From Okamejei kenojei (Eukaryota), in NCBI GenBank assembly GCA_035221665.1, contig CM069165.1:17050001-17114000 (forward strand): DNA of 64,000 nucleotides, in the 5' to 3' direction. Of the stretch, positions 7,486 to 62,460 are shown piece after piece (the stretch's first letter is position 1; every line of letters begins with the position of its first letter). Below the pieces are notes generated by a model. It saw only the letters and a program-made list of their open reading frames with translations. It had not been told where the DNA came from and ran no database searches. Made by a program: the position numbers and the translations under genes.

Positions 7486-7728
7486 GTGAGCTGCCACTTC
7501 CGGCCCTCCTCCGACAACAGCAAACCTGTAATGATGCCATTTAAAAGTAATAAAAATATATACTTGTGGAAAATGCTATTGCTGTCCTCTGTCACCAACA
7601 AATTAAAAATAGTGAACACTTTTTGCCGAGTGCAGAGTTTATTAAAAATCTTGACATTGGGTGAAAGTTGCCCAAATTGTAGGTTGCAGACACACTGATA
7701 CATGGTCTGGCACCCACTCATTCTTGCT

Positions 7729-7959
7729 AGACAAAAATGCTGGAGACACTCAGCGGGTGAGGCATCATCTACGAAGCGAAGGAAATAGGCAAAGTTTCGG
7801 GTCTAAACCCTTCTCCAGACTGATGTGGGAGGGGGGCGAAGAACGTTGACCCGAAGCGTTGCCTATTTCATTCGAGGCATAGATGCTGCCTCGCCCGCTG
7901 AGTTTCTCCAGCATTTTTGTCTACCTTCGATTTTCCAACATCTGCAGTTCCATCTTAAA
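7729..7959. mobile_element. Penelope-derived fold-back element with 14-bp TSD
   Basis: Inverted arms agacaaaaatgctggag... and ...ctccagcatttttgtct; TSD cactcattcttgct at 7715-7728 and 7960-7973. Confidence 0.85.
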
Positions 7960-24297: not shown

Positions 24298-25029
24298 TAA
24301 CTCTCCTGATTCAGTATTGGAAGCAGATTGGCATGGAGACAACCCTGCATGCAGCATAAATGTGTCAGAGAGGCACTGGATAGAAATAGACTTAAACCAA
24401 CCGTCCTTTAATCCTATCCTTATGCTAAAACTTCACATGCTGTGGTTCTGTGACCATGTTCACACCATTCTGTGTTCTTTGTTACAGATCCTTCACCTTG
24501 TTTCAAGTCTAGTTTAAAACCAGTTACTTTTATGTTTGTTTGCATTTCAGCGATGATTTAGATGCTTGTGTATTAAACGGCCAGTAATCTGATATCACCA
24601 CAGTGAGCAAATCTCTGCTTAGTCATTGTGTACTAATTAAACACAGTACCTGGCAAATCCAGCTTGGATATAACTAAAAATAACATTGTTCGTGGCAGTC
24701 GCACTGCAGCTCACAGTGGAACTTGGTCCTGTATCTTGTTTATTGGGTTGCCAAGTAATTGTTTTTAAGATAATCTTGCTTCAATGGAGAATTTGTTTTT
24801 GGAAGAGATGATGGCGCAGTTCACTTTCAATCAATTTAGCAGCATTAGTACACAGTATCTCATTGTACATCAGTGCCAGTTAATATGTAATGCTTTGTGT
24901 TATATCAGTGCCAGTAGCATTTAAAAGGCCATGGTTAATCAGTGCCAGTGCTTTCTATCTTCAATCCTTGTGGCTGTTTATTTAAAATGCTATCCAACTG
25001 CTTGGAAGAAGTGTAAACGAATTGTTGGG

Positions 25030-25215
25030 TACACAAAATGCTGGAGAAACTCAGCGGGCGCAGCAGCATCTATGGAGCGAAGGAGATGGAAGAAGGGTTT
25101 CGGCCCGAAACGTTGCCTATCTCCTTTGCTCCATTGATGCTGCTGCACCCGCTGAGTTTCTCCAGCATTATGTGTACCCTCGATTTTCCAGCATCTGCAG
25201 TTCCTTCTTTAAAAC
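25030..25215. mobile_element. Penelope-derived fold-back element
   Basis: tacacaaaatgctggagaaactcagcgggcgcagcagcatc ... gatgctgctgcacccgctgagtttctccagcattatgtgta. Confidence 0.8.
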
Positions 25216-25743: not shown

Positions 25744-25940
25744 TCAAGAAGGAACTGCAGATGCTGGAAAATCGAAGGTAGACAAAATTGTTGGAGATAC
25801 TCAGTGGGTGCGGCAGCATCTATGGAGCGAAGGAAATAGGCAGCGTTTCTGGCCGAAGAAGGGTTTCGGCCCTAAACGTTGCCTATTTCCTTCGCTCTAT
25901 AGATGCTGCCGCACCCACTGAGTATCTCCAGTATTTTTGT
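25744..25940. mobile_element. Penelope fold-back element nested in an older Penelope fold-back (~25690-26090)
   Basis: 15-bp TSD ctactggaggaattc (25729-25743) / ctactgggggaattc (25941-25955). Confidence 0.8.
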
Positions 25941-27015
25941 CTACTGGGGGAATTCAGTGGGCCGAGCAGCATCTGCAGAGAAAAAGGAAAGTCGTCACTT
26001 TGGGTCAAGACCCTTCACCTGGGCCAGTCAAATGCCCATTTCCCTCCACAGATGTTGCCTGGCCCACTGAATTCCTCCAGCAACTCTTTTCCTGCAGGAG
26101 ATATGTTGAAATTTCATTGAAGGGGAGGGCAAGGGAAGCTCTATTCCAACTGCAAGAGAATAAGAGAGAGCAGGAAGTGAATACACGGATTAACCTTGTC
26201 AAACCCCTGGAGAAACAGGATGAAAAGAGGTGTACTCGAGTTACCTGTGGGAGTCGTCAGCATTTTAATGGGTATTAATTCCCAATTTTACCAAAGTGTG
26301 TCGGGATGTATCAAATAGAAGAGTAGCCCATGGTGCATTTGAAAATGGAAATACATTGGAAATGGATTGCAAAATTATGAAACCTTCAGAGGAATGAGAA
26401 TTTCTTCTCGCCTTTAAACAATTTCTCCCTTGATTCCTCCCACTTCAGATAAATTAAAGCTGTAGCGGTGAGCACTCACATGGGTCCTAGCCTCTTAGCT
26501 GCCTCTGGTGATTGTTGACCACAGCGTCTAGTAGCTGAACAGCTGCCACAGCAGAGTGCTGTCACAGTGACTGATTCTTTCAGTCTTTGGCCTTCATGCC
26601 CAGTGTACGCTGAAGGAACAGCATCCCATTCTCAAGTTGGGCATGTTCCAACTGAGGGGTGAATGTTGATATTAATTTCAGATTTACATATTCTCACCTC
26701 TGTATATACATGTACATGTCTGCATATTTCAGTTCACATCCATTCTAACCCTTCCCTCTTAATCCTTTAAAAATGCATGTTTACTCACATCTCCAATTCT
26801 GATGGAGTCCAAGACCCAAAAAACGGATCTTATCTCTCCATAGGTGCTGTTTGACCTGCTGAGTGCTCACAGGACTTTGCCTTTGTCTCTGATTTCCAGC
26901 ATCTACTTTTCTTTTTGTTCCAGTGTATAAGTTGCTGGTTTGGTCCTATTGCCTGTGTGCATACTGAAAGGGCTGGTGGCTCCTTTTTAAGTCTTGCATT
27001 TGATTTGTCTTTCAG

Positions 27016-27127
27016 TATTATCAGCTTGGCCACCAAGTGTGCCATGCCCAGTTTCCGAATGCACCTGAGAGCTCATGGAATGGTAGCCATGGTCTTCAAG
27101 ACACTAGACGATGCACAAAAGAACCAG
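27016..27127 (+). CDS. WAPL: WAPL coding exon, phase 2-0
   Basis: tttcag|T ATT...CAG|gtagag; (S)[37 protein letters not shown]. Confidence 0.97.
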
Positions 27128-27821
27128 GTAGAGTCTCATTGTTCAATGTTCAGATGAAGTGTTAATGACAATTATTCTGGTGTATCATTCCAAGTTCCAA
27201 AATACTTCCAATACTTGCACTGAATCACATGTGGTTAAACAGATTGGGTTCCGGGGGGATGTAAGAATAGAAAGCATGAGAGGTATTAAGGTGTGAATGC
27301 TGGAGCTTGTAGCCTTGGCAACACATGTTGGAGTGATCAAAATCAGGGGCGTGCTCAGAAAGCAGAACTGGAAAGTCCAGAGTAGGTTAAAGGGGATTCT
27401 CCCTGTGTCCACATGGGTTTCCTCCGGGTGATCCGGTTTCCTCCCAAATCCCAAAGATGTGCGGGTTTGTAGGTTAATTGGCCTCTGCAGATTTCCCTTC
27501 GTACAGGGATTGGATATGAAAATGGGATAACATAGAACTTGTGTAAACGGGTGATTGATGGTCGATCGGATGGACTTAGAGGGCTGAAGGATCTGTTTCC
27601 ATGCTATATCTCTAAACTAAAACTAAACATACAAACTAATACATAAGGTAGTGTTTGCAACCATCTTGGTGACATTTAGTAGTGCCTATATTTTTGTTGC
27701 CTGTAGGACGTCCGTGCTCCCCTACCCCTAACGAGAATTTGGTGTCCATGCTCATTGTCCTACTTTAGTCCTTGTGTGCCCATTTGTTGAATCTGTCGTC
27801 TTTTTTGTTCTGGGTTGTCAG

Positions 27822-28046
27822 AATCTAGCTCTTTGCACGGCAGCACTAATGTACATCCTGAGCCGAGATCGGCTGAACATGGATCTGGATCGAGCCAGTC
27901 TGGACCTGATGATTCGCCTCCTGGAGTTGGACCAGGAGCCATGCTCGCGTCAACTGAACGAGAAAGAAATGAAAAAGATAAAGGAGAAAATCCGCAAACT
28001 CTGCGAGACTGTTCACAACCGGCACCTGGACCTGGAGAATATCACG
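27822..28046 (+). CDS. WAPL: WAPL coding exon, phase 0-0
   Basis: tgtcag|AAT...ACG|gtaaga; [36 protein letters not shown]...[16 protein letters not shown]. Confidence 0.97.
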
Positions 28047-29763
28047 GTAAGATGAAGCAGCCTCCTATCTGTCTGCTTTAATTGCTGTCTAAAGGAGGTG
28101 TGGTGCAGTCAGTGGCTTATTGATACTTAATAACGGGTAGACATGATATGTCATCACATTGCTGAAGATGGCTCTGGTGATTGCTCATATTCTGATTCAA
28201 TAGCATACAAGAAATATAGTGATTGTCCTGACTTTTTTTAACGAAGTTTTCCAACTTTCTTGTTACAATTGGAGCTCTACTGTTGATGTCCAGTTTATGT
28301 AACTGGGAATAGAATGTCCCTTCCTGACATTTTACAAACCACTCTATCTTCTTGGTTAATATTGGACTCCAGTTGAGATTATGAGTAGCATTGTAGCAAA
28401 TGCAGCCTCATGCAGCATTATGGCTTGTGTGTCATAAAATTTGCCCTAGACTTGCCCTAGACAATGGTGGCGAAGCAGTTAAATTACTGGAGTAGTAATC
28501 TGAAGAATAATCTCACCAGGGCAGCTGTGGAATTTTAAATCATTTAGCAAGCTGGAATTGTGTGAAGAGACAGTCATTAACGAAGATGACATTTATAATA
28601 TTGTTTCAGGTATGAAAACTTACATCCTTGACATGTCTGACCTTATCGTGACTTGAGACCCACTGACGTGGTTCACTGTTAAATACCCTCTGAAATGCAC
28701 GCCACTCAGATCAGAAGCAATTAGGGACGGGCAATAACTGTCGTTAGCGAGGACCAAATCACACGGAATAACTGAATTGGAAACTAAATTACATTTACAG
28801 ACTAATTACAGGAAAACTTGTTGAAGGCATCAGGTAATCAAAATGAACCTGCTGCACTTCAGGCCAAGGCTGGCAGCTCAAGTTGCTAGTTTGTTTTAAA
28901 AATAGCTCGGTTGAAGAGCTCAGTTAAAACATCTTCAATCATTTCACAGGCTCTGTGAACTCAGTTTTCCCTCGTAATGTTCACATGTCAAGGTGTAAAA
29001 ATGTTGCTCGGGTCACATTGTGATGGGAGGTTGGAGGTGGAAGAAGAGGAGCTGGCAATGGAGAGGAGTGAAAATGGAGGAGGAGGAAAGGAGGCAGAAA
29101 GTAAGGAGAGTGGGGTCGAGAAGGGGAGTTAGGGAGTTGGTGGAAGGAGGCTGTCCCAATTTTACAGTGAGAGAGTGTGCAGTGGAAGAAGTAGTTTGGG
29201 TGGAGGAAAAGGGACCTTCAGGGAGGAGATGCTGGGGTGGAGGAGGGAGCGGATGTTGGGAGATGGGATGAAACTGGAGCTGTAGATGGAAGGGGCTATG
29301 ACAATGCAAGGCCGCCAAGGGATATAGTAGGACAGGGTCACAGAGACTGACAGCTCTGCTGTTGCTCACTCCATGTTGTGAGAGCATGCTGCTGCTCGGA
29401 ATGTGCAGCCTTTGTGATTCCATTCTCGAGTTCAAAAAAATTGCTCCAGTTTTTCACTAATAAACGTAAACCTAAGCTCTGTTCTACCCCTCCTTGTCCA
29501 TCTACGATGTTCTTTTGAACACGAGAGGTCATTTGAATTGGGCAGGTGAAATTATTGACACAACCATTTACCTGATTGGAGTTATTTGTTTTGCCATCAT
29601 TAAGCAGGCTGTTTAAGTAAATATGCTGAGCTTTTACATCCAAAAGCTCTAAACCTAATGACCAAATACAAACATTACGAGGTTTGTGTTCTTCGTGCGC
29701 TTTCCAGTTGCTGGCTTTATAAAGTCTGACCCACTGGCTTTTTCAACATGTTTAGGGGTTAAC

Positions 29764-29903
29764 TTCTTCTTCTTGCATATGGCGTGCACAGCCTAAAGTT
29801 GTCGGACAACTTGTTCCATTTGATCTTATTTGATTGTGCACACTGGGTTGATTGCATTCGTCGAAGCAGGGCGGACCACGTGAAGGTTGCAATCTTCCAC
29901 CCC
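29764..29903 (-). mobile_element. ~140-nt non-autonomous retroposon with a 5' HDV-like ribozyme and (GAA)n tail, copy 1
   Basis: TSD tttaggggttaac (29751-29763) / tttaggggtcaac (29904-29916); colinear with the copy at 34754. Confidence 0.9.
29850..29903 (-). ncRNA. Minimal HDV/CPEB3-like self-cleaving ribozyme (54 nt), copy 1
   Basis: GGGGUGG-AA-GAUUGCA-ACC-UUCACGU-GGU-CCGCCCU-GC-UUCG-A-CGAA-UGCAAUC: 7-bp P1 with G1-U wobble, 7-bp P2, 3-bp P3, CPEB3-type L3, and J4/2 CGAA carrying the catalytic C. Confidence 0.85.
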
Positions 29904-29934
29904 TTTAGGGGTCAACAATGCAAACAAACACCAT

Positions 29935-30452
29935 TATGTTAGGGATTTGACGAGGACTGGGAGAGGTCGTGCAACATCATTCTAGATTTACTAGAATGTT
30001 ACCAGGGTTCCAGCAACTATGTTACAGAGAAAGGTTGAACAAGTTAGGTCTTTATTTCTTTGGAGCGTTGAGGGGGGACTTGATTGAGGTCTTTAAAATG
30101 ATTAGACAGAGTTGACGTGGATACGCTTTTCCCATTGAGGGTAGGGAAGATTCAAACAAGAGGGCATGACATGCGATTTAAGGGACGGAAGTTTAGAGGT
30201 AACGTGAGGGGGAACTTCTTTACTCAGAGGGTGGTTGCTTGTGTGGAATGAGCTTCCAGCAGAAGTGGTGGAGGCAGGATCGATTTTAACATTTAAAAGT
30301 AAAGTGGATAGGTATATGGACGTGAAGGGAATGGAGGGGTATGGTCTGAGTGCAGGTAGATGGGACTAGGGGAAAACAAATGGTCGGCACGGACTGGAAG
30401 GGCCGAGAGGGCCTGTTTCCCTGCTGTAATTGTTATATGGTTATATGGTTAT
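29935..30452 (+). mobile_element. CR1 LINE 3' fragment
   Basis: gagggggacttgattgaggtc (RGDLIEV), ttctttactcagagggtggt, (gttatatg)n tail. Confidence 0.9.
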
Positions 30453-30772
30453 CATGACTTTCTTAATCACTTGCAACTCAGAACGACAGGTGAGAAGAGA
30501 CTTAAATGAGGATTGGTTTCAAATGCTAATTGTGCATATTCACAAGTGTCATACTGCCAAAGGTCAGGTGCCAAAGGAAACATTAAACTGGAAGATGAGA
30601 GTGAAAGACTAATGCTGTCTGCCGCAGAAGAGGTGCATGCTTGTAGATGCCTGATGGTTGATGCTAGCCCCACAAAATGTGGTATTATTTTGTGGGACCT
30701 GGTCCATTAAACAATTTGAGGGAGTATGCTGTGCCTTTCTTGGGTTTAAACCTGAATCTTTTTTTTGGACAG

Positions 30773-30884
30773 ACGGGACATTTGGCAATGGAGACGCTGC
30801 TTTCCCTCACATCCAAGCGAGCAGGCGACTGGTTTAAAGAGGAATTGAGACTCTTGGGAGGATTGGATCACATTGTGGATAAAG
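30773..30884 (+). CDS. WAPL: WAPL coding exon, phase 0-1
   Basis: ggacag|ACG...AAA G|gtacat; [37 protein letters not shown]. Confidence 0.97.
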
Positions 30885-31990
30885 GTACATGTCCACACAG
30901 AATTAGAGTGGGTACTTTTACATTTTCACAGAATCTCTCCAAATGCAAGCATGATTCTTCCATCTCTTGGTAGCTGCCAATGGCCGCAGTCACACTCCTA
31001 TTAATGTCCAGGTTTTGAAGCTAGTTCCTTGCATCTATTGTAATTGACTACCCTGAAAGGTAAGAATGGGAAGTGTTTGACAATGTGTTCCAATGTTTGA
31101 CAACTTAAGTAGCAACGAGGATTTTTGAAGTTACATCAATTTAAAATGTGGACAGGTCCTAGTTTTCCATTTTGGGTATCATCATGGTTATAAAACAAGA
31201 GCAAAAAACTGTATGTTAGAAATCTGAAATATGTTCATGTCATAGGAGCAGAATTAGGCCATTCAGCCTATCAAGTTTACGCCATTTAATCATGGCTGAT
31301 TTATCTTTCCTTCTTAACCCCATTCTCCTGCGTTCTCCTCATAATCCCTGACACCTGTACTAATCATGTATTTTTTTCTCTCTGCTTAAAAATATCCATT
31401 AACGGCCTCCTCAGCCCTTTGTGGCAATGAATTCCCACGAATATAAGCAGAAAATGCTGGAATAATTCACAGGTTGACAGCATCTGTAGAGAAAGACAGT
31501 TCGCAAAGATCATCGACCACAAACAGGACCTCTTTCCGCTTTTGGGGTGGATGTTTTATTTGGGTCCTGTTTCTGTCTGGAGGCTCCAAACATATTTGCT
31601 CCATTGAGACATCCACAATTGTTTGGTATTAAATATGGTATCTCATTGGATTCTTTCCCCCATCTTTGAATATAAACCAGCATCTGCAGTTCCTTCCTAC
31701 ACATTTTATATTTTTGATATTTGTTTTATTTTCCTCAAAATAATCTGCTGAGTGTGCTGCAAAGAATTGAAGATTTTTCTAATATGAATGTATCTATATA
31801 CACCAGTTCGATGGATTTCTAAATAGCAAGGGATCAGAGCTTGTGTTTTCCATCCTCTTGGAGATTTCTGACTAATTTTCATTCAGGTCATTTTTCTAAA
31901 GTTGATAGCATTCAGTTTTCTAATCTGTTTCAGTCAGTCTGAGAAGAAAAGTCAATCCTCATCATCTTAAATATTGTTCTACATTCGCAG

Positions 31991-32088
31991 TGAAAGAATG
32001 TGCGGTACAGTTGAATAAAAATGAGGAGCAGGACAAACTGGTTGCGACGTTATGGGGTGCGGAGCGCTGTTTACGTGTGCTGGAGAGT
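31991..32088 (+). CDS. WAPL: WAPL coding exon, phase 1-0
   Basis: tcgcag|TG AAA...AGT|gtaagt; (V)[32 protein letters not shown]. Confidence 0.96.
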
Positions 32089-33377
32089 GTAAGTATCACA
32101 GTGATGCACGGCATCCATTTTAAATTTGCATCTGGAGCATAAGTCACAACAATGCTTGGCAGAATAGATGATTGTTTCTTTCTGATATCGAAACAGCATG
32201 ACTGGATATCATTCTTTCATTGGCACACAAGGGGCTCCATTTATCCAGCTTTCAGATGTCAGATGAGTTCACAGAATCAATGGTTTATATCACAGGAGAT
32301 AATTTGACCTATTCATGTCACTCCTAGGCAGCAGTATTCTATCTACTCATTCCACACCTCCCTGTAAACAACTTTAAATCTTTACGCTCTTCCCATTTTC
32401 CGTCATCTATCTGCATTGCCAAAAGTGCCCATGATTAAATTTCCTATTTCCATGCCAACTGCTATCCATTTTCTACTACTGTCTCTGCTGAACTTTTGTA
32501 ATAATGGGCCTAGTAATTAACCTGACATCTGCATTACTCTTTTTTTTCCTCCTTGGATTCCTCCTTTTATCAAAAATGACAGCAGGCTCTTGATCAGCTT
32601 TGCCAATGGGCTGAGCAATGGCTGATGGAGTTTAATGCAGATGCGCAAGGTGTTGCATTTTGGGAAGACAACTCGGGGCTGGACCTTGGAGAATGGTTCC
32701 GCATTATCACAGTTCTTTTATCACACCTGTAATTTCCCTGCAAATACATCCTTCTATATCCATCCCATTCATTGAATTTAGTGTTTGCTGTTTTATTTTA
32801 GCTGTCTTTGTTATTGTTGCATCATAATTCACATAGTTAATTGTGCCAACTGCTCCAACTTTGCTGGACATTACATTTTTCAGGCTCTTGAGTCCATATG
32901 CACCCTCCATTAGCTTACCTTGCACCCTTTTCCATTTTTTTTTGCTAGTCTAAAACTACTCTACAACTACCCATGTTGGGTCAAATGGGCCAGTTTCCAT
33001 GCTGTATGGTTTTTATTCTCTTTTGCTTTTTTTTTTCCTTTTTCAATGTTACACCCGTTTACATTTCCCTTTTCACTCTCCCTCCAACAATATGATTAGG
33101 TCCCGCCAGAACAGTGGTTGCAATTCTGTTGAGGGTAAACTAATCTGATCTGTGCAGGCTCCAGCTTCCTCTGAACTGGAGCAACGATCTGAGGAAACTA
33201 AAGCCTTTGCTTCTGTCTAGCTGCTTATTCAACCTTCTGTCCTATTTCTGTACTTGCCAGTACATATAATGAAGGAATGCTGGTTCTAAACTTGATTGAG
33301 TGTCTCCTTTGGCAACATTGCTACAAACTCTGCCCCTCCCATTGCAACCATGTGCGCTGCACTCTTTCACTCTAGAG

Positions 33378-33624
33378 CAAGGGTTCCCAACCTGGGAACC
33401 AGCACACGTAAATTTACCACCGGGGGTAAATTTCACCAATCCAGGGTGTAAATTTGTTGATTCTGGATTTTTACATATTTTTTTCTCATTGATTGACTGA
33501 CTGTTTGGTTCTGGTATACAGTTATCTGTTCATCATTAGTTGTTCATAAATAAATGAAATAACATTGTTATGTGCTATTAAAGTTGCCAGGGGTCACTGG
33601 GCAGAAAAATTTTGGGAAACTCTG
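33378..33624 (+). mobile_element. hAT (Charlie-like) MITE
   Basis: Ends caagggttcccaacc / tttgggaaactctg; 8-bp TSD ctctagag / ctccagag. Confidence 0.85.
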
Positions 33625-34197
33625 CTCCAGAGTGCATTTTCCCTCACATAAGCGCATTTTTCCAAATCCAGGGTTCACTTATGAGGGCAATATCCACAAC
33701 CGTAAAATTGTGCTGAACCTTTCCAGGTTACAAATGGTCCTCAAGAACTCAGCCATTATCCTGGACTGGGTCTGTCACCAAAAGGCTTAGCACTACTTCA
33801 CCGCACGATTAGTAACTCAATCCATTGATGGGATAATGGAGGAAATATTTTGCTTGGGTCTCTGCAAATAGTTCAATTCGTAACACCAGTAAATCTACTA
33901 TCCCACTCTGGGGTTCCAGGTTAAAAGATGATTGATGGCTTTCCCCCTGTTGACAAGCGCACAAATAATGATGGGAAATGTAGAAACAAGGATGGGGAAT
34001 GGTCCAGTTAAGGTAAAATTCACAAATACTACGATACTAAGATACATTTGTAAGTACTGGAGCTGCTGTACTATGTTGCATTTTGTTGTTGAGATTTGGA
34101 AGTTGAATACTGAGATGGAACTTTGACTTCCCTTCAAAGGTTTAAATGTACCACAGGTAAATCTACTTACTGTCTTAATTTATTTTATTTTAATCAG

Positions 34198-34274
34198 GTC
34201 ACTGTTCACAATCCAGAAAACCAAGGTTACCTTATAGCGTACAAAGACTCCCAGCTCATCATGTCTTCTGCCAG
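34198..34274 (+). CDS. WAPL: WAPL coding exon, phase 0-2
   Basis: taatcag|GTC...GCC AG|gtaggt; [25 protein letters not shown]. Confidence 0.96.
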
Positions 34275-34753
34275 GTAGGTGTGTGGTGGAAGAAACCCAT
34301 TGTGTTGGTGTGGGAAGTGAAGTTTACCCGGATGCTTTCAGTTTGTTGTCATGTGTGTTTGTGTTTGACTCTGTGCCCTTTAAGGTGAGTGAAAGATATT
34401 GTCTGCACCTAGATCCCCCGTTCACCACATAATTCATTAAAGTGTACTTGTTTTCCGTCAGCACTGGAGATATAATTAACAATTATCAAAGGAGTTTGAA
34501 TATCTTCACCTGCAAAACTGGAGAAATGCCTCCCAAATGTAAAATTTGATGTTTTTGTAATCTACTTCTGAGAAATCTGTGCAGCACAATTTTATGAGGA
34601 GGATGGGGAGAGTTTTACTTTTGATCTCTTAAAAAACATTTCCTACCCAGTTTTTATACAGTTAACAATAGTCAACAGTAGACACCAACTTTAGTTCATG
34701 TAAACCAAAGAGATCCGACGTTTGTTAACATGTGCCTCATCACCCGGTACTAC

Positions 34754-34893
34754 TTCTTCTTCTTGCGTATGCCGTGCACAGCCTAAAGTTGTAGGACAAC
34801 TTGTTCTATTTGATCTTATTTGATTGTGCACACCGGGTTGATTGCATTTGTTGAAACAGGGCAGACCACGTTAAGGTTGCAATCTCCCACCCC
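34754..34893 (-). mobile_element. ~140-nt ribozyme-headed retroposon, copy 2
   Basis: Perfect TSD acccggtactac (34742-34753 / 34894-34905); same 5' start and (GAA)n tail as copy 1. Confidence 0.9.
34840..34893 (-). ncRNA. Minimal HDV/CPEB3-like ribozyme, copy 2 (partly decayed)
   Basis: GGGGUGG-GA-GAUUGCA-ACC-UUAACGU-GGU-CUGCCCU-GU-UUCA-A-CAAA-UGCAAUC; all helices retained, L3 C>A change and CpG-type changes. Confidence 0.75.
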
Positions 34894-35274
34894 ACCCGGT
34901 ACTACAGATGTCTGAATTACAATACTTTTTTGCATAAATCTGTGTTTTTAACATTTCCTGTGTTAATGACTTCGAAATATGAAACACATTCACAAACCTA
35001 CAGTTGCCTGGATCTCTCTGCTTTGATGGCCTGAGAGTCTGGGGTCAATGATTTGCCAGCTGTCAGTTGATTTCTGAATGCAGCAAACAGTCTGTGCTGA
35101 GACGAACCCCCTTGCTGCAGTCGGCCATATCAAAGTGTTAGATTTCTCTCCATTTTGGGGAAAAATAATGATTGTTTGTTTTTTGTTTTTCAAAATGGAG
35201 GGACCCTATGAAGCTTGTCAGACACAATTTGTATTAACAAATGATGCTCATTTTAATTTGTTAGTCCATATTAC

Positions 35275-35910
35275 TAATGGAACGTTGGCCTTCATAACAA
35301 GAGGATTTCAGTATAGGAGTAGAGAAGTTCTTCTGCAGTTGTACTGGGCTCTGGTAAGACCACATCTGGAGTATTGTGTACAGTTTTGGTCTCCTAATTT
35401 GAGGAAGGACATCCTTATGATTGAGGCAGTGCAGCGTAGGTTCACGAGATTGATTCCTGGAATGGCAGGACTGTCATATGAGGAAAGCTTGTATTCACTG
35501 GAGATTAGAAGGATGAGGGGGATCTTGTAGAAACATATACAATTATAAAAGGACTGGACAGGCTAGATGCAGGAAAAATGTTCCCAATGTTGGGCGACTC
35601 CAGAACCAGGGGCCACAGCCTTAGAATAAAGGGGAGGCCATTTCGGACTGAGGTGAGAAAAAAACATTTTCACCCAGTGTTGTGAATTTGTGGAATTCCC
35701 TGCCACAGAGGGCAGTGGAGGCCAAATCACTGGATGGATTTAAGAGAGAGTTAGATAGAGCTCTAGGGGCTAGTGGAATCAAGGGATATGGGGAGAAGGC
35801 AGGCACGGGTTATTGATTGGGGACAATCAGCCATGATCACAATGAAGGCGGTGCTGGCTCGAAGGGCCGAATGGCCTCCTCCTGCACCAATTTTCTATGT
35901 TTCTATATTT
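35275..35910 (+). mobile_element. CR1 LINE 3' fragment
   Basis: ORF LAFITRGFQYRSREVLLQLYWALVRPHLEYCVQFWSP; tttctatg tail. Confidence 0.92.
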
Positions 35911-36870: not shown

Positions 36871-39591
36871 TGCAGCCTTTAGCGTAGCCTTTAATTTATT
36901 TATGTCAAAAAAGCAGGATGTGATCATCGTCACACACGGCTCCATGACCTTCAGTAGTGAGATAACCCCACTGTATATCACCAATGCTGTAATAATTCGA
37001 TATAGTACAGGAGGGAGTTGAAACCAATTCTGGTGCTGAAGATTAAATTGATTCTGCCTTTCTCTCACTGTATTCTAGCCATGCTCCAGAATGCGAGTTT
37101 GGTAACTAATCACAAAGTAAAGTCTAGGGCCACATACTGTGTACTATACTGGCTGTACCTGCATTAGTTGAAAATATTATCCGATGAGATTGAAGCTGAG
37201 AAAGCAGGCATTCAACTCTACCGCAGTGCAGGTATCACAAATCAGAGGGCGTCATCACCCTGTCTGCCCACCCCTCCCCCGGTTAAAGTTGTATTCCTAG
37301 TCCAGTGAGTTTGCTCCATCCCTTTATCCAACAGGCTTCATAGTCGAGTAAGAAAGCTCAAATCCCATTTGAGGAAAGGAAACATAATATTTTCCTCTGC
37401 TGTTCACTTCTGATGAGGCGAAAAAATGAATTTAAATCTTCAGCCTGGTCTTCTGCCAAAGGCAGTTATTCGGCAAGCTTTGCTGAGCAACTTTTACACT
37501 GCCTTCCTGCTCTGATCAGTCATGTTCACATTTCCCCTTTTGAAACTGCTACTGTGTACAGCTGTGCGTTTTTTATATTTAAAAAAAAAGGATGTTTCTG
37601 TTTGCCAGCAAGTTCCTGGTTGACCCAGACAGCGGGCTGAATCTGGTAATCGTCAGCAGCTTTGAGCGGCCCTTGCTCGGTGAAGCATTGTTGTACATCA
37701 TTGTTCTCCGCTGCCTGACCCGCGTCGGCTGGCGAATGCAGCTTGCAGAAGATAATTATTTTCCATTTGCCTTCTGTTGCTGAACGTTAGCTGCCGGTGT
37801 GCTTGGCACCTCTGACAGATGTGAAGACATGTTTCTGCTAATCTGCAGTGTGTTGTTTTCAATTTGGTGGCCTCTGCCTGCCCTTGCTTCCCTTCCCTGA
37901 CACTCAAAAGAAAATATTTATCTGTCCCAATTGCCTGCCTTTGACCAAGAGGTGGTGCAGTTGGATCCGGTGGGCTGTGTTTTCATTACCAGTTCTGTCG
38001 GGTTTCTAGATATAACCACTGAGTGGCACTCCATCCAGTTGCAGAAAAAAGCCACTACACTAGGCATGCTCTCTGAATTTCTTGCGAAAGTAAGTGTCTG
38101 GTAAACTCATGTATTAAACAGGCAAAAGTTAAATCCTGTATGTGCATCGAGAAAATTCATGATTTTTGTCCAATTTACCATGTTGAATTGCACTGTTTGC
38201 TGTAATCTGTAAGATCCTCTATTTACAATTTAATTTAATAACTCCAAAATTATACTGCAATCAAATGCAGTGGATCTTCAGAGGATATTTAAATTAAAAG
38301 AAATATAAAGGACATGATAATTAAAGGATTCCGTCTTGGGATGACCCAGAGCACTTTATGGTCAGTCATATACTTTTAAATATATTTAATCTATAATATG
38401 GGAAACATGGCAGTCAGTTTGCGCACATCAAACCTCCACAAATAGCAATGTAACATTTCCTCTCTGATCTGTGTTTCTGCCCAGCCCAAGGATGAGCTAA
38501 TGGGTTATTCTTTGGAAAGTGAACCAAAATGCCACACACACACGACCAGATGGCATCACATAAAGTAGTGCATTCAAAAGTTCTTGTAAGGGATGAATCG
38601 TTTTGTAATTTACCTACCTGCAGAACTATAATGCATGCCAGCTAAAGATATGAACAACCTAGCTTTTTAAAATTCAGAGTTTGTAAGATTGTAACTGAGT
38701 TATGAAAAAAATGCTTCCGTGTGAGGTTACACACGTGACCAGTCATATTTGACCTCTGACCCTTAACATTGTCAGCACAACATAAAAATGTCACTTGATA
38801 AACCGAAAAAAATGTGAATGATATACAGTACAAAACAGTACACGTGTAATGCTTTCAGAATTAGAAGAGATGTATTCCACAAATTTTCATATTTTTAGCC
38901 ACACACTTGACCAAGAATGGGCATAATGGTTAACTGGGTTCCATAAGTTGCCCCTGGTGCATTACGAGGACTGGGTGTGGAGGAGGTGATAGGTTTGTGA
39001 AAGAGGGAATGGTTCCATGGAGAATAAATGGGGGAGTGGAATTCATGGAAATGTCCTGAGTGCCAGTTTACGTTTTTGGACTGAATGCCTCGTATGTTGA
39101 AAAATATAGGCCAGACATTCTGTTTAATAATTGAAAGATAAATAATTAGTCATGGAACAATCCAATAACTCCACGACTCTTAAAAGTGATGTCATGAGAG
39201 CCTTTACTCTCACCTGGGGAGAACAGGTAGAATTTGGTTCAGCATCTTATCTTAAAGACAACTCCCTGGCGATGTGTTCATCCCTCAGTACACACCAGCG
39301 CATCGGCCAAGATTTTTGTGCCCAAATCTGAATGCAACTTGAATCCACGATCTTGTGACTCAGGCAAGAATACTACCCACTTAGCCATGGCTAACAAATT
39401 GGAAATTACCAATGAAGGCATAGTATTTAAAAAAATTGAAAGCATTTCTATTGAATCCTGGTGAGACCAAGCAATTGCACAGAGATTTAGTTTCAGTCAT
39501 ACAAAGAATCACTGGAGAAAGTATAAAAAAGGACATGAAACAGAACTGAGAAATTATTACTTGAGGAAAGTGAACAGGCTGGAGCTCTTGT

Positions 39592-39870
39592 GTTTAAGGA
39601 ACTGCAGATACTGGAAAATCGAAGGTAGACAAAAGTGCTGGAGAAACTCAGCGGGTGCAGCAGCATCTATGGAGCGAAGGAAATAGGCAACGTTTCGGGC
39701 CAAAACCCTTCTTCAGACTGACGTAGGGTGGAGGGGGGGTGGGCGGGGAGAAGAAAGGAGAAAGGAAGAGGAGGAGGCTGAGGGAGAGCTGAGAAGGGGA
39801 GGAGATAGCAAGGGCTACCGGAAATTGGAGAAGTCAATGTTTATGCCGCTAGGGTGCAAACTGCCCAAGC
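39592..39870 (-). mobile_element. Penelope 3' fragment with intact hammerhead-like core
   Basis: Reverse complement ctgaagaagggttttggcccgaaacgttg at ~39687-39716; GIY-YIG tail ggagaagtcaatgttt...ctgcccaag. Confidence 0.85.
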
Positions 39871-41980
39871 TCTCGTCTAGAAACTATGAATAGTATTATC
39901 TAGTCGAGGTCTTTATCTACCTAATCAAACCTCTAATTTTGGTATCAGTTTTGAGGAGTCTGGAGATGAAGGAACCAAAGCAAAGATAGTCATTAATAGA
40001 TCTAGTGGAGAATTCGGAATAAACAATATTTTTATTTGAGTAGTGCTGGGAAGGCTTGATAAACATGGGGGGTGAAAATTGAATTTACTGGTGAAATAGA
40101 AGGGAAAGTAGTTGTGTAGAGCATGTTTATAGGCATGAGCTTATTAAACAAAATGGCACCTTTCTCAGCTGTGAAATTCTTTGAATAATTAATATACTTC
40201 TTTAATTAGCTCCTTTATGACAATGTGGCACAGGTGCCAGCAATTTGGTGCATCTTCCTTTTGTCAGCAATTTTTAAGAGCTATCTAAAGTCGTTTTCCT
40301 TTTCTGATCCACACTGTAAAAGTTTCTCCTTTGAGTATTTATCCAGTGCCATCTCAAAGCTGTTATTGAATCTGCCACCTGCCCCCCTTTCAGGCTCTGT
40401 GCTCTTGTTGCATGAGTCATTTCACTTTCAGTCTACATGTCCTGACACAGCACAGATCTGCATCTTAACGTGACGCATATCAACATTAATAATTCATTGA
40501 GTTACCTGTGTGGATACCTAGAAATGTCAGTTCATGGAAACGGGTGTTTATTACTTATGTAAGAAGGAACTGCGGATGCTGGTTTAAACCAAAGATAGAC
40601 ACAAAAAGCTGGAGTAACTCAGTGGGACAGGCAGCATCTCTGGAGAGAAGGAATGGGTGACGTTTCAGGTCGAGACCCTTCTTTATCAATTTGTTTTTTC
40701 GACTCTTACATTGAAAATGCCTCATATAGACCCACAAATGAATGCATTCAAGGGTATGTTATCTAATGGAATCAGGCCAAACACTTGCAAGGAAACCTGA
40801 TTACTTCCACTGGCCCCTTTCGACTGTTGAATTAATACTGTTTTGCATATTAAACATCACTTGAAAGAAGCATTGAGGATAGGAGAGACACCGTGTGCTT
40901 TGGCCATGGTGTTCATTGCCCATCAATCACTAAGGACAAATACTTCAAGGGAAGTTGCAAACAGTAAATATTCTCCAAAACTAACAGTACAGTGGCATGA
41001 TCACCCAATGTGAAAACCCTGCTACTTTCTGCAGCTGGACAACACATTGAATTGCTGCACTGCTTAACTAATCTTAGTTGCAAGTAAAGTGATACAAGGT
41101 GTACCACATTTGACTGTTGATGTTCAAGTAACCCTGGCCAAAATTGAAGTCGGGAGCCACAAAGGGAGTTTGGAGTTATAGGCCAATAAGCCCAGCCCCC
41201 GATGATTGCCATAAGATTTCATCATGGTATTATCCTTGGCCAGCCACAATCAACTACTGCAATATCCTTCTGCCTCTCAAAAATGGGGAAGTTCACCATG
41301 ATGAGTAGCAAACAATGTGTTCACTATTTACCATGCTAAATCTGTATACTGTCAACCAGATGCCCCACAAGATCTTGTTAAGGATTTGGAAATGTCACCT
41401 TTTAAACCTGTAATTTGTACTGTAGAAGCATGTGCCTGCAGCAGCACAAATTATAAGATTTTGCTCTGGTTTGTGCACGCTATCTGCTTGGAAAAAATAT
41501 CCATTAATTTGTTAATAATTCTAGATGTTCGAACTACTGTCCAATGGTACGAAATGTGCAATCACTATACAGATTTTGATAGCTCAACATGATGGTTCAC
41601 CACCACATTATCAAGCATTTAGGTATAGGAAATAAAATTATTTAAATGGGCTTCTATAATACAAGAAGAGTAAGGTGATGTGCCTCAATGATTACTGACT
41701 GGTGGCACTAACATCCATGTTGATAAAGTAAATTGAAGAGTTGGTTATGGCACATATCAACTCCTTCCAAAACAAGAACCTGGGCCCTACGATTTGCTAC
41801 CACCACAACAGGTCCACAGAGGATGCAATCTAACTGGCTCTCTACTGCATTGGACCACTTAGACAATAAAAACACATATATCAGCTTGGTGTTCATTGAC
41901 TACAGCTCGGCATTTGCCACCGTCGCTTTTCTCACCTTACCCTTTCATGTCTCTCGTCTCCCTCTCCCCTAACTCTCAGT

Positions 41981-53538: not shown

Positions 53539-53935
53539 AGCTGTCACGAAACAAACTGTAGTTCAACTCTCCCTTTTAAATCAAGAGTTGCGAGAGCATT
53601 CGGTGAGGTTAACTGTTGGATGCAATATTGCAATGTTTGAGGTTGGTGCAATGTTCGAGGTTCAGCAGTTACAGTGAAACTAAATTATACACTGAAAATT
53701 CACAGAACATTTCAGAGCAGTGAGCAGAAAGAACTTACTTGGGATACCTGAAGTCACAGATCAGACAGGGAAGGGACAGGAAACTTTCTCCACCAACAGC
53801 CATCAGTGAATCAGATCGCCTTTTTACCAGAATCTGGTAGCTTCATGATTAGAATTAGTGGCCCCGAAATTGGTTTAAAAGTTTCAAATTTATTTAATTA
53901 CTTATATTTAAAATCCCGACCGCCATGTTAAATGA

Positions 53936-54143
53936 ATGCCCCTGTCCCACGTAAGAAACCTGAATGGAAACCTCTGGAGACTTTGCGCCCCACCCAAGGT
54001 TTCCGTGCGGTTCCCGGAGGTTTTTGTCAGTCTCCCTAATGGTCGAAACTGACAAAAACCTCCGGGAACCACACGGAAACCTTGGGTGGGGCACAGAGTC
54101 TCCAGAGATTTCCGTTCTGATTTCCTAAGTGAGACAGGGGCAT
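53936..54143. mobile_element. Fully palindromic Harbinger-type MITE
   Basis: atgcccctgtcccac...ctgacaaaaacctccgggaacc...gtgagacaggggcat; ~95-bp arms with a short spacer; tga/taa flanks. Confidence 0.88.
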
Positions 54144-54189
54144 TAAAGTCATCACTGCCTGTCTGGATCAGTGCTCAGGAGGATAGAGG

Positions 54190-54217
54190 CTGAAGAAGGG
54201 TCTCGACCCGAAACGTC
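54190..54217 (+). ncRNA. Minimal Penelope-type hammerhead ribozyme core
   Basis: ctgaagaagggtctcgacccgaaacgtc, identical to 41981, in a pLTR fragment at 54190-54320. Confidence 0.65.
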
Positions 54218-54487
54218 ACCCATTCCTTCTCTACAGGGATGCTGCCTGTCCCGCTGATTTACTCCAGCATTTTGTGTCTATCTTTGGTTTAAACCAGCAT
54301 TGCAGTTCCTTCCTACACACTCAATGCTCAGGAGGTCTTGCTTCTGGCCAATAACCTACCCCCTACATTTCTGTGGGTATCCAACGATGTGTCGCTTATT
54401 ATTGACGCCATTTATTTGGGAAGTAAACTTATTGCTCATTTTTCAGTTTGTTCAACTATTCATGATATTGTTCCTTTGCCTTTTTAG

Positions 54488-62199: not shown

Positions 62200-62460
62200 T
62201 ATCTGAGGGAACTGCAGGTGCTGGTTTAAATCGGACATAGACACAAAATGCTGGAGTAACTCAGCAGGGCAGGCCGCATCTCTGGAGAGAAGGAATGGGT
62301 GACGTTTCGAGTCGAGACCCTTCTTCAGACTGATTGTTTCAGGTCGAGACCCTTCTTCAGACTGATCCGTTTGAAGAAGGGTCGAGACCCCAAACGTCAC
62401 CCATCTCCAGAGATGCTGCCTGTCCCGCTGAGTTACTCCAGCATTTGGTGTCTATCTTCG
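62200..62460. mobile_element. Penelope fold-back element with three hammerhead-like cores
   Basis: Two tandem minus-strand cores (62301-62328 and 62336-62360, 32-nt period) and one decayed plus-strand core (62371-62398). Confidence 0.8.

Follow-up and report, generated by a model that had tools for sequence, protein, structure and literature searches.

Ribozyme-headed short retroposons have been described from trypanosomes and from fly rDNA. Like the family that we analyse here, the trypanosomatid elements NARTc, RIME, and SIDER are short and non-autonomous, consist of the two end segments from an APE-RT LINE, insert at dispersed sites, and start with a segment of about 77 nt (Pr77) that holds an HDV-like ribozyme from +1 (PMC4035085). 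The R2 SIDEs of Drosophila also join a ribozyme to the 3' end of their parent, are not transcribed by Pol III, and are mobilised in trans (PMC3414825). In vertebrates, ORF-less bipartite LINE derivatives of the kind discussed below include the Vingi-1_EE derivatives of the hedgehog, RTESINE1/2, and Bov-A, and bipartite derivatives are known from four clades, among them Vingi (Kojima 2018, PMC5786205). Finally, the minimal HDV-like or theta ribozymes share with our element a nested pseudoknot core without P4; for the eukaryote set of that study (human, mouse, protists), no minimal ribozymes are reported (Kienbeck 2024, PMC10879173).

The window, a stretch of 64,000 nt from the genome of Okamejei kenojei, holds two 140-nt inserts, both on the minus strand, which align without gaps and are 92.1% identical to each other. 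Copy 1 occupies 29764..29903 (read from 29903 to 29764), and copy 2 occupies 34754..34893 (read from 34893 to 34754). Both end in an (AAG)n tail. Copy 1 is flanked by a 13-bp target-site duplication (TSD) with one mismatch (29751..29763 on the tail side and 29904..29916 adjoining G1), and copy 2 by an exact 12-bp TSD (34742..34753 and 34894..34905, with a possible one-base overlap at G1). An earlier note on this DNA had described two separate insertions of ~140 nt, each with its own TSD of 12-13 bp and a short-repeat tail, and the coordinates bear this out. It had also proposed that the element is excised from read-through host transcripts. Both copies lie antisense within introns of WAPL, so WAPL's own transcript cannot be their source, and for these two copies that transcript is ruled out.

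The base next to the TSD had been taken to be G1 of a ribozyme in both copies. The TSD limits agree, as does a pseudoknot descriptor: it finds an HDV-like fold in the window only at G1 = 29903 and 34893, with no match on either strand of 10 Markov control windows. The predicted ribozyme of copy 1 (29850..29903, minus strand; nt 1-54 of the element) has the nested double pseudoknot of the minimal HDV-like form, with all helices intact: a 7-bp P1 with a G1.U wobble, a 7-bp P2, a 3-bp P3, and a 7-nt L3, without P4. Its predicted catalytic C is nt 44 (29860), and its nt 38 departs from the family majority. In copy 2 (34840..34893, minus strand) the helices are also intact, but the L3 cytosine partner of P1.1 is changed, and the predicted ribozyme is therefore likely impaired. 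The Rfam scan of the window gave no match at the gathering threshold; the HDV-like models of Rfam include P4, which the element lacks. A weak match to HDV-F-prausnitzii (RF02682; 14.3 bits, E 3.1, cut-off 44) falls exactly at 29903-29850, and at E 1 the scan of 11 LINE loci returned nothing but a palindromic repeat. Plain MFE folding was uninformative and does not set the element apart (z −0.22), as a pseudoknot would lead one to expect.

The predicted fold is also supported by covariation among heads from this and related families. In an alignment of 7 heads of 4 kinds (a small set, chosen by the fold itself and including related rows), 99.2% of the cells are paired and 12 of the 17 pairs have changed on both sides, while none of 500 shuffles was as good and slid controls reached 41-54%. 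G37, C44, and A46 (the P1.1 G, the catalytic C, and the conserved A in J4/2) are invariant in the 7 heads, and G1.U and L3 are likewise unchanged across families. Within the short family, variants above 15% occur in nt 1-54 only at the unpaired nt 8 and nt 45. The catalytic C is kept in 86 of 94 copies, and in 97 of 100 copies of a wider listing. Of 63 copies that do not belong to the best-hit set, only 21 keep all pairs and core bases. One subfamily has about 3,100 copies with the exact 34-nt core, so a strand bias in introns can be tested for. We also considered whether a change at nt 29 that breaks P3 (8 of 94 copies) marks a subfamily that was amplified with an impaired ribozyme. We rejected this, as the change forms a local cluster near a contig end, and a wider listing along contig 1 has it in 1 copy of 100.

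Both ends of the element match one 3.1-kb LINE of the same genome, which has a single ORF for an endonuclease and a reverse transcriptase (RT). The head (nt 1-77; 29827..29903 in copy 1, minus strand) is 85-88% identical to the 5' end of this LINE. The 3' part (nt ~95-140; 29764..29809, minus strand) comprises the last codons of the ORF, the stop, the 3' UTR, and the (AAG)n tail, and is 87-97% identical to the same LINE family. The linker between them (nt 78-94; 29810..29826, minus strand) is peculiar to the short family and, judged by eye, seems to repeat the last part of the head as a local duplication. The LINE is reached from its ORF end plus the common tail (54 matches) and also from the common head, as the copies L168 and L173 start at G1. 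Thus, the element has both ends of one autonomous-type LINE, with the middle deleted and without an ORF. Because one LINE supplies both ends, we conclude from the sequence comparison that the 140-nt element is a bipartite non-autonomous LINE, an internal-deletion derivative of a likely Vingi-type LINE, rather than an RTE-driven SINE with a borrowed tail.

These results modify the earlier note in part. Its description of a SINE-like family with its own head does not hold, as nt 1-77 and nt 95-140 are the two ends of one LINE. It was right that no tRNA, 5S, or 7SL head and no A/B boxes are visible: we found no tRNA in the element and no Rfam family, and the best A+B box pair was no better than those in shuffled sequences (127 of 500 were as good). 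Given these results and the LINE-derived head, we rejected a strict SINE (Pol III-transcribed, with a small-RNA head). Mobilisation in trans by a LINE gains support, since a LINE with the same head, tail, and (AAG)n repeat was found. The note had called for a search for an autonomous LINE sharing either the 5' ribozyme or the 3' end; the 3.1-kb LINE shares both, though the sampled copies are all broken, and the 59 protein-search matches listed include none from the parent family that is intact.

The parent LINE most likely belongs to the Vingi clade, as judged from its sequence and its relatives. The copy L171 is about 3,090 nt long and carries a TSD; Vingi-2_Gav is 3128 nt long. The parent has an RT domain. 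The closest intact database relative, P0001 (75%, 1019 aa), has endonuclease (PF03372/PF14529) and RT (PF00078) domains, and L171 and P0001 agree with the compact single ORF, APE endonuclease plus RT, and length of ~3.1 kb of Vingi. No RNase H family was found on P0001 or on the RT frame of L171 at E 0.01, and the lack of RNase H separates Vingi from Ingi (PMC13708176). In the RT tree, a single clade (100/99) unites all of the families with their database relatives and separates them from 8 distant LINE pieces. This tree contains no labelled Vingi or RTE protein; the Vingi name comes from family B, whose head resembles by eye that of the Repbase-labelled Vingi-2_Gav and with which the parent RT groups at 100/99. 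Also, the parent's ORF terminates in a Cys/His motif, which we take to be a feature of Vingi and not of RTE.

The family numbers roughly 18,000-21,000 copies in this genome. The high copy number that was expected from two copies in 64 kb is confirmed by exact matches to 20-nt words from the head (11,546) and the tail (10,421), as against 0 for reversed-pattern controls. The expected sharp peak of 5' ends at G1 was found as well. When tail-anchored copies are taken in order from contig 1, 77 of the first 80 extend to nt 4 or further toward G1, and 89 of 94 distinct copies start within 4 nt of G1; copies that extend 5' of G1 or are randomly truncated are not the rule. A TSD is present in 77 of the 89 full-length copies, most often of 11-12 bp, and its boundary is exactly G1 in 59 of the 89 (vs. 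12 of 1759 shuffled pairs). The TSD and a simple-repeat (AAG)n tail common to the LINE copies indicate insertion by target-primed reverse transcription. In two other runs (31 and 41 contigs, which do not report RNA ends), contigs have loose ends at 29903 and unrelated flanks. With 3.7-5.0% non-CpG divergence, the burst of the short family looks old and about coeval with the parent LINE family, every sampled copy of which is broken.

We propose that the element, as the LINE's first 77 and last ~45 bases, was likely copied by the LINE's protein after a cut by the predicted P4-less ribozyme, and we consider this account probable. What is observed is that both ends match the LINE, that mostly 11-12 bp TSDs adjoin G1, that the flanks are unrelated, and that the fold covaries. 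Transcription of a source copy would start at a host promoter upstream of it or at one within its own head, and the transcript would self-cleave at G1. The cleaved RNA would then offer both of its ends to the LINE protein, aided by a predicted 10-bp stem between nt 60-69 (29835..29844 in copy 1, minus strand) and nt 114-123 (29781..29790, minus strand). Such pairing of the RNA's two ends is significant in 3 of 5 families; the two exceptions are family C, for which 263 of 1000 shuffles were as good, and family D, for which 374 were. Target-primed reverse transcription would begin in the (AAG)n tail and would nearly always reach G1, as the template is just 140 nt.

A start at G1 is given equally by an internal promoter, and reverse transcription would in any case run through a template of just 140 nt. 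A reading that we consider unlikely, though worth weighing, keeps the same origin but gives the head two functions, as in Pr77 of L1Tc: an RNA polymerase II promoter at or near G1 would drive transcription, the ribozyme would only trim read-through RNA, and the element would therefore not be promoter-less. The 77-nt hallmark of the Ingi clade is both promoter and ribozyme (PMC4035085, PMC3383444), Ingi and Vingi are sister clades (PMC13708176), the head common to the element and the LINE is likewise 77 nt, and both window copies are antisense to the host gene. By analogy with the homologous Pr77, then, the head may also be a promoter. However, the heads of five families are alike in fold and little alike in sequence, as would be expected of an RNA structure more than of a site that binds a factor.

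The missing P4 raises another concern: the P4-less form might cleave little or not at all, and the fold would be kept as a binding handle or a 5'-end shield for the LINE protein. Engineered Vingi templates contain both UTRs (PMC13708176), and 10 LINE insertions have captured the head in inverted orientation, which suggests that it is held at the insertion site. Nevertheless, P4-less phage ribozymes cleave in vitro (PMC10879173), and the invariance across families of G1.U, L3, the P1.1 G, and the catalytic C with its A makes us doubt this explanation strongly. The partner favoured originally was an RTE-clade LINE that shares only its tail with a SINE-like family bearing its own ribozyme head. 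Long TSDs and a microsatellite tail do suit RTE, and RTE elements may bear HDV-like ribozymes and make bipartite elements (PMC5786205). But a single LINE supplies both head and tail, and its RT groups at 100/99, in a tree without an RTE reference, with the family whose head is Vingi-like. Together with the Cys/His end of the ORF, this largely refutes RTE as the partner, and we give it very little credence.

The preferred account, of a Vingi-type LINE with a ribozyme head, also bears on the mammalian CPEB3 ribozyme. In this genome, sister Vingi-type families have heads that are near-copies of that ribozyme and reach up to 66.8 bits with its Rfam model (RF00622, cut-off 35), which suggests that the mammalian CPEB3 ribozyme is a domesticated Vingi head; the literature that we searched holds no report of Vingi-type families whose heads pass this threshold. 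If so, the sister families would be the outgroup that Bendixsen 2021 called missing, and the origin of the CPEB3 ribozyme becomes directly testable. The 59 CPEB3-like matches that were scored, a minority of the candidates, are all more than 4 Mb away from the five located CPEB genes. Taken jointly, we lean toward the view that HDV-like ribozymes would be a general 5' hallmark of the Vingi clade, that the end-to-end stem would make the two ends copyable, that one mini-element would have spread thousands of intact P4-less ribozymes, and that the CPEB3 ribozyme would be a domesticated Vingi 5' end.

The likeness to R2 SIDEs and to the short trypanosomatid elements that had been noted holds up. 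Its novelty for vertebrates stands in part: the bipartite kind was already known there (Kojima 2018), whereas in the literature searched we found no ribozyme heading Vingi elements and no P4-less ribozyme at such copy number in a vertebrate. The family thus extends ribozyme-headed short retroposons to a genome-wide vertebrate family and would make Vingi a further clade with a ribozyme at the 5' end. This is relevant to Kojima's question of why only some LINE clades spawn bipartite parasites. Also, work is under way to turn Vingi elements into gene writers (PMC13708176), and a natural template of 140 nt shows which parts are enough. The differences from the known systems are as follows. The ribozymes of NARTc, RIME, and SIDER have P4 and were assayed, and their heads have demonstrated promoter activity (PMC4035085), whereas the P4-less fold here is predicted from sequence; their parent clade, Ingi, has RNase H, which the parent here lacks; and their hosts are trypanosomatids, while the host here is a vertebrate with about 20,000 copies. 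R2 SIDEs are rare, confined to 28S rDNA, and depend on a restriction-like endonuclease, in contrast to genome-wide insertion with 11-12 bp TSDs (PMC3414825). About 99% of the minimal ribozyme matches are in tailed phages, often beside tRNAs (PMC10879173), whereas this fold heads a vertebrate retroposon. The CPEB3 ribozyme shares with the element a 7-nt L3 and a single-pair P1.1 layout, but the element's helices are unlike those of CPEB3 and lack P4, and the CPEB3 ribozyme exists as one conserved copy in an intron and is reported absent outside mammals (PMC8233481).

The two window copies of the short element, each 140 nt and on the minus strand (copy 1, 29903 to 29764; copy 2, 34893 to 34754), are genuine insertions. 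They are 92.1% identical without gaps, each has an (AAG)n tail, and their TSDs differ in sequence (13 bp with one mismatch for copy 1; 12 bp, exact, for copy 2), much as an earlier note on this DNA had described. The note had also seen no tRNA head or A/B boxes, and indeed no tRNA was found in the element and its A/B boxes score no better than chance (127 of 500 shuffles did as well). Both copies lie antisense within introns of a gene that is on the plus strand (by splice sites and frame) and is WAPL by Pfam. Spliced contigs link exons 27014-27124, 27819-28045, and 30772-30882, and there are further WAPL exons near 34,270, 50,750, and 59,780. (WAPL exons in the window span 27014-59900 on the plus strand.) Because the copies are antisense, they would leave the WAPL pre-mRNA uncut and do not derive from it, and two cases prove no orientation bias of intronic copies. 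The window also contains several copies of a palindromic, MITE-like repeat of very high abundance (7723-7956, 25027-25209, 25746-25944, 39590-39748, 40556-40684, 53935-54323, and 62200-62455) and many CR1-like LINE 3' ends (e.g., 561-1512 and 35276-35910).

The earlier note's expectations of a high copy number and of a sharp 5' end at G1 (nt 1, the predicted cleavage site) were borne out. Across the 2.76 Gb genome, a word from the head has 11,546 exact matches and one from the tail has 10,421. Contig 1 has, over its first 13.1 Mb, 100 head and 80 tail matches with 50 in common, and from this overlap we estimate 18,500-20,800 copies, which is likely an underestimate. Of those 80 tail-anchored copies, 50 contain the exact nt 2-21 word, and when the other 30 were read singly, three were 5'-truncated, so the G1 end is reached in 77 of 80; random truncation or extension past G1 is not the rule. 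(None of those 30 are LINE ends, and two are a segmental duplicate with common flanks.) Similarly, 26 of 30 head-anchored copies continue to the tail. In a set of 94 distinct copies, 30 of which are best hits to copy 1 and hence skewed toward full length, the 5' end lies within 4 nt of G1 in 89. Of these 89, 77 have a TSD, mostly of 11-12 bp, and in 59 of the 89 it ends exactly at G1 (versus 12 of 1759 shuffled pairs). The bases upstream of these 89 copies have nothing in common except a T bias at -1 (43/89). Contig loose ends in two other sequencing runs cluster at 29903, with unrelated flanks, and most of the short-family words that we sampled recur in sequencing runs from seven or more coded organisms. 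The non-CpG divergence of two subfamilies is 5.0% and 3.7%. Full copies also lie in, or just beside, their own parent LINE (L257:499-636 and L146:2460-2591). The first has its own TSD within the endonuclease region of the LINE copy, so the short family was still mobile after that LINE inserted.

The 3' part of the short element resembles the final codons of a LINE ORF, and a pattern built on this idea had 54 matches, about 52 of which are 3' ends of one LINE family. Longer copies of this family encode an RT and an endonuclease, and the full-length ones are headed by the same predicted ribozyme: one (L168/L173) begins at G1, and another (L171) has ~3,090 nt between its TSDs, without the first 9 nt. 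The LINE matches the short element at both ends (85-88% identity to nt 1-77 and 87-97% to nt ~95-140), and the 17-nt linker between these parts looks like a local duplication. The origin of the short element, like its ends and TSDs, is a matter of observation. The sampled parent-LINE copies are all broken, but the closest intact database protein (P0001, 1019 aa, 75% over the RT region) has endonuclease and RT domains and no RNase H. In an RT tree without labelled reference sequences, the parent family (A), four other families from the same genome (B to E), and 13 database relatives form one clade (100/99), separate from 8 distant LINE pieces. The earlier note had proposed a LINE partner in trans, for which this family is the likely candidate, and had held the RTE clade most plausible for it, which the evidence here does not favor. 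Rather, the parent LINE is likely of the Vingi type, given its single ORF without RNase H, its size, a C-terminal motif that we take to be a Vingi feature, and the resemblance between Vingi-2_Gav and the head of a sister family. A single ORF without RNase H is described as a Vingi trait (PMC13708176), and the Vingi-2_Gav sequence is given in the Kojima 2018 supplement (PMC5786205). A young Vingi-type family, with copies ~99% identical (L261:644-3860 on G000:C313, L178, L182, L186, L187, L253, and L255), has an intact HDV-like head with P4; L261 carries frameshifts. This family and the short element are identical in the last 10 bases that precede the (AAG)n tail.

Nucleotides 1-54 are compatible with an HDV-like nested pseudoknot, with a predicted P1 of 7 bp (the G1.U wobble first), J1/2 of 2 nt, P2 of 7 bp, P3 of 3 bp, L3 of 7 nt, a C-N-A-A motif preceding the P2 partner strand, and 7 nt only in the place of P4. 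A descriptor of this pseudoknot matches the window at the two copies only and had no matches in 10 Markov controls. The short element has no Rfam match at gathering, and a weak HDV-family match to copy 1 covers precisely nt 1-54. In this segment of the short family, variants exceeding 15% are confined to the unpaired nt 8 and 45, and about 10 lie downstream. Leaving aside the best-hit set, 21 of 63 copies have every pair and core base intact. In one subfamily, a 34-nt core pattern that leaves two positions free has 3,118 exact genome matches; among 100 listed matches, 95 are unchanged at both free positions, 3 no longer have the catalytic C, and nt 29 is altered in 2. The last count led us to drop the idea of an amplified subfamily with a damaged ribozyme. 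Near the contig end, in the first 5 Mb of G000:C1, many copies have T replaced by C at nt 29 (L032, L033, L055, L057, L059, L113, L114, and L230), whereas this change is rare further along, a pattern that GC-biased gene conversion close to a chromosome end might produce.

Families B and E (by descriptor search) and C and D (by eye) also begin with HDV-like folds. Across seven heads, a small set that was selected by the fold, 99.2% of cells are paired and 12 of 17 pairs changed on both sides; none of 500 shuffles reached this covariation, and slid structures pair 41-54%. The predicted HDV-like ribozyme head is probably a feature of this LINE clade.

The most likely mechanism is that a source copy would be transcribed, its RNA would self-cleave at G1, and the LINE protein would reverse transcribe the cleaved RNA at a nick. 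In this mechanism, cleavage at G1 and the source of transcription are inferred. The start at G1 alone is compatible with either cleavage or an internal promoter. The head may contain such a promoter, in which case the element would not be promoter-less as the earlier note had it: the head of Ingi-clade elements is reported to be both promoter and ribozyme (PMC4035085).

How LINE RNAs might give rise to bipartite elements is suggested by two other observations. Nucleotides 60-69 are complementary to nt 114-123, and both arms derive from the LINE's own ends. When we compared the 30 nt 3' of the ribozyme with the 40 nt 5' of the tail, using 1000 shuffles per family, the end pairing beat shuffles in A (24/1000), B (0), and E (0), with sequences that differ between families, but not in C (263/1000) or D (374/1000). 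Also, 10 distinct parent-LINE insertions, counted among 94 partly overlapping loci with a LINE body, have a short inverted head piece beside a body that often starts more than 2 kb further on (L065, L069, L081, L090, L098, L110, L149, L156/L174, L164, and L166). L1 twin priming gives small deletions, unlike these insertions. Both observations are consistent with a model in which the two LINE RNA ends would be held together during insertion, and jumps between the ends would make bipartite elements. Inverted head pieces are likewise seen at CPEB3-like heads (L197, L201, L203, L205, L209, and L212).

The genome has 59 scored places for the mammalian CPEB3 ribozyme (Rfam RF00622), 30 of them above gathering (best, 66.8 bits), and none of 14 control genomes had any over the cut-off. 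A Vingi-type ORF piece lies within ~300 nt of 12 of the top 20 matches versus 4 of 80 control windows (and two of those 4 fall on the same insertions). At L251 (G000:C14:7155000-7159800), a CPEB3-like head is followed by an endonuclease, an RT, and an (AAG) tail. By eye, 57 of 67 positions of L196 agree with the Rfam consensus in the cmscan alignment, and Vingi-2_Gav matches the human CPEB3 ribozyme at 37/40 and 14/14 bases flanking the P4 loop. As the helices vary freely among the other families, this likeness is hard to explain by convergence. With dispersed copies outside mammals and a single copy inside, the direction was probably from element to host. At least three repeat families have heads above the CPEB3 cut-off (L195-L214, L251, and L252), many joined to Vingi-type ORF pieces, and the L196/L197 type is nearest to the mammalian sequence. 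The alligator SINE2-1_AMi contains a Vingi-2-derived CPEB3-like ribozyme sequence 3' of its tRNA head (PMC5786205 supplement), and its L3 and P1 changes would be expected to disable the predicted ribozyme; the portions of Kojima 2018 available to us (PMC5786205) do not mention this ribozyme.

The short element is real and is of a bipartite-LINE kind that is already known. On its own it is of moderate interest, which is raised by the predicted clade-wide ribozyme and by the probable CPEB3 link. None of the papers searched on Vingi and ribozymes describes a Vingi ribozyme, and Vingi is not among the six ribozyme-bearing clades in the available text of Kojima 2018 (PMC5786205). P4-less ribozymes are reported almost solely from phages (Kienbeck 2024, PMC10879173). 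ORF-less bipartite elements are made by RTE, Ingi, Vingi, and R2, with vertebrate examples (Kojima 2018, PMC5786205), and the tested models among such systems are the R2 SIDEs (PMC3414825) and NARTc/SIDERs (PMC4035085).
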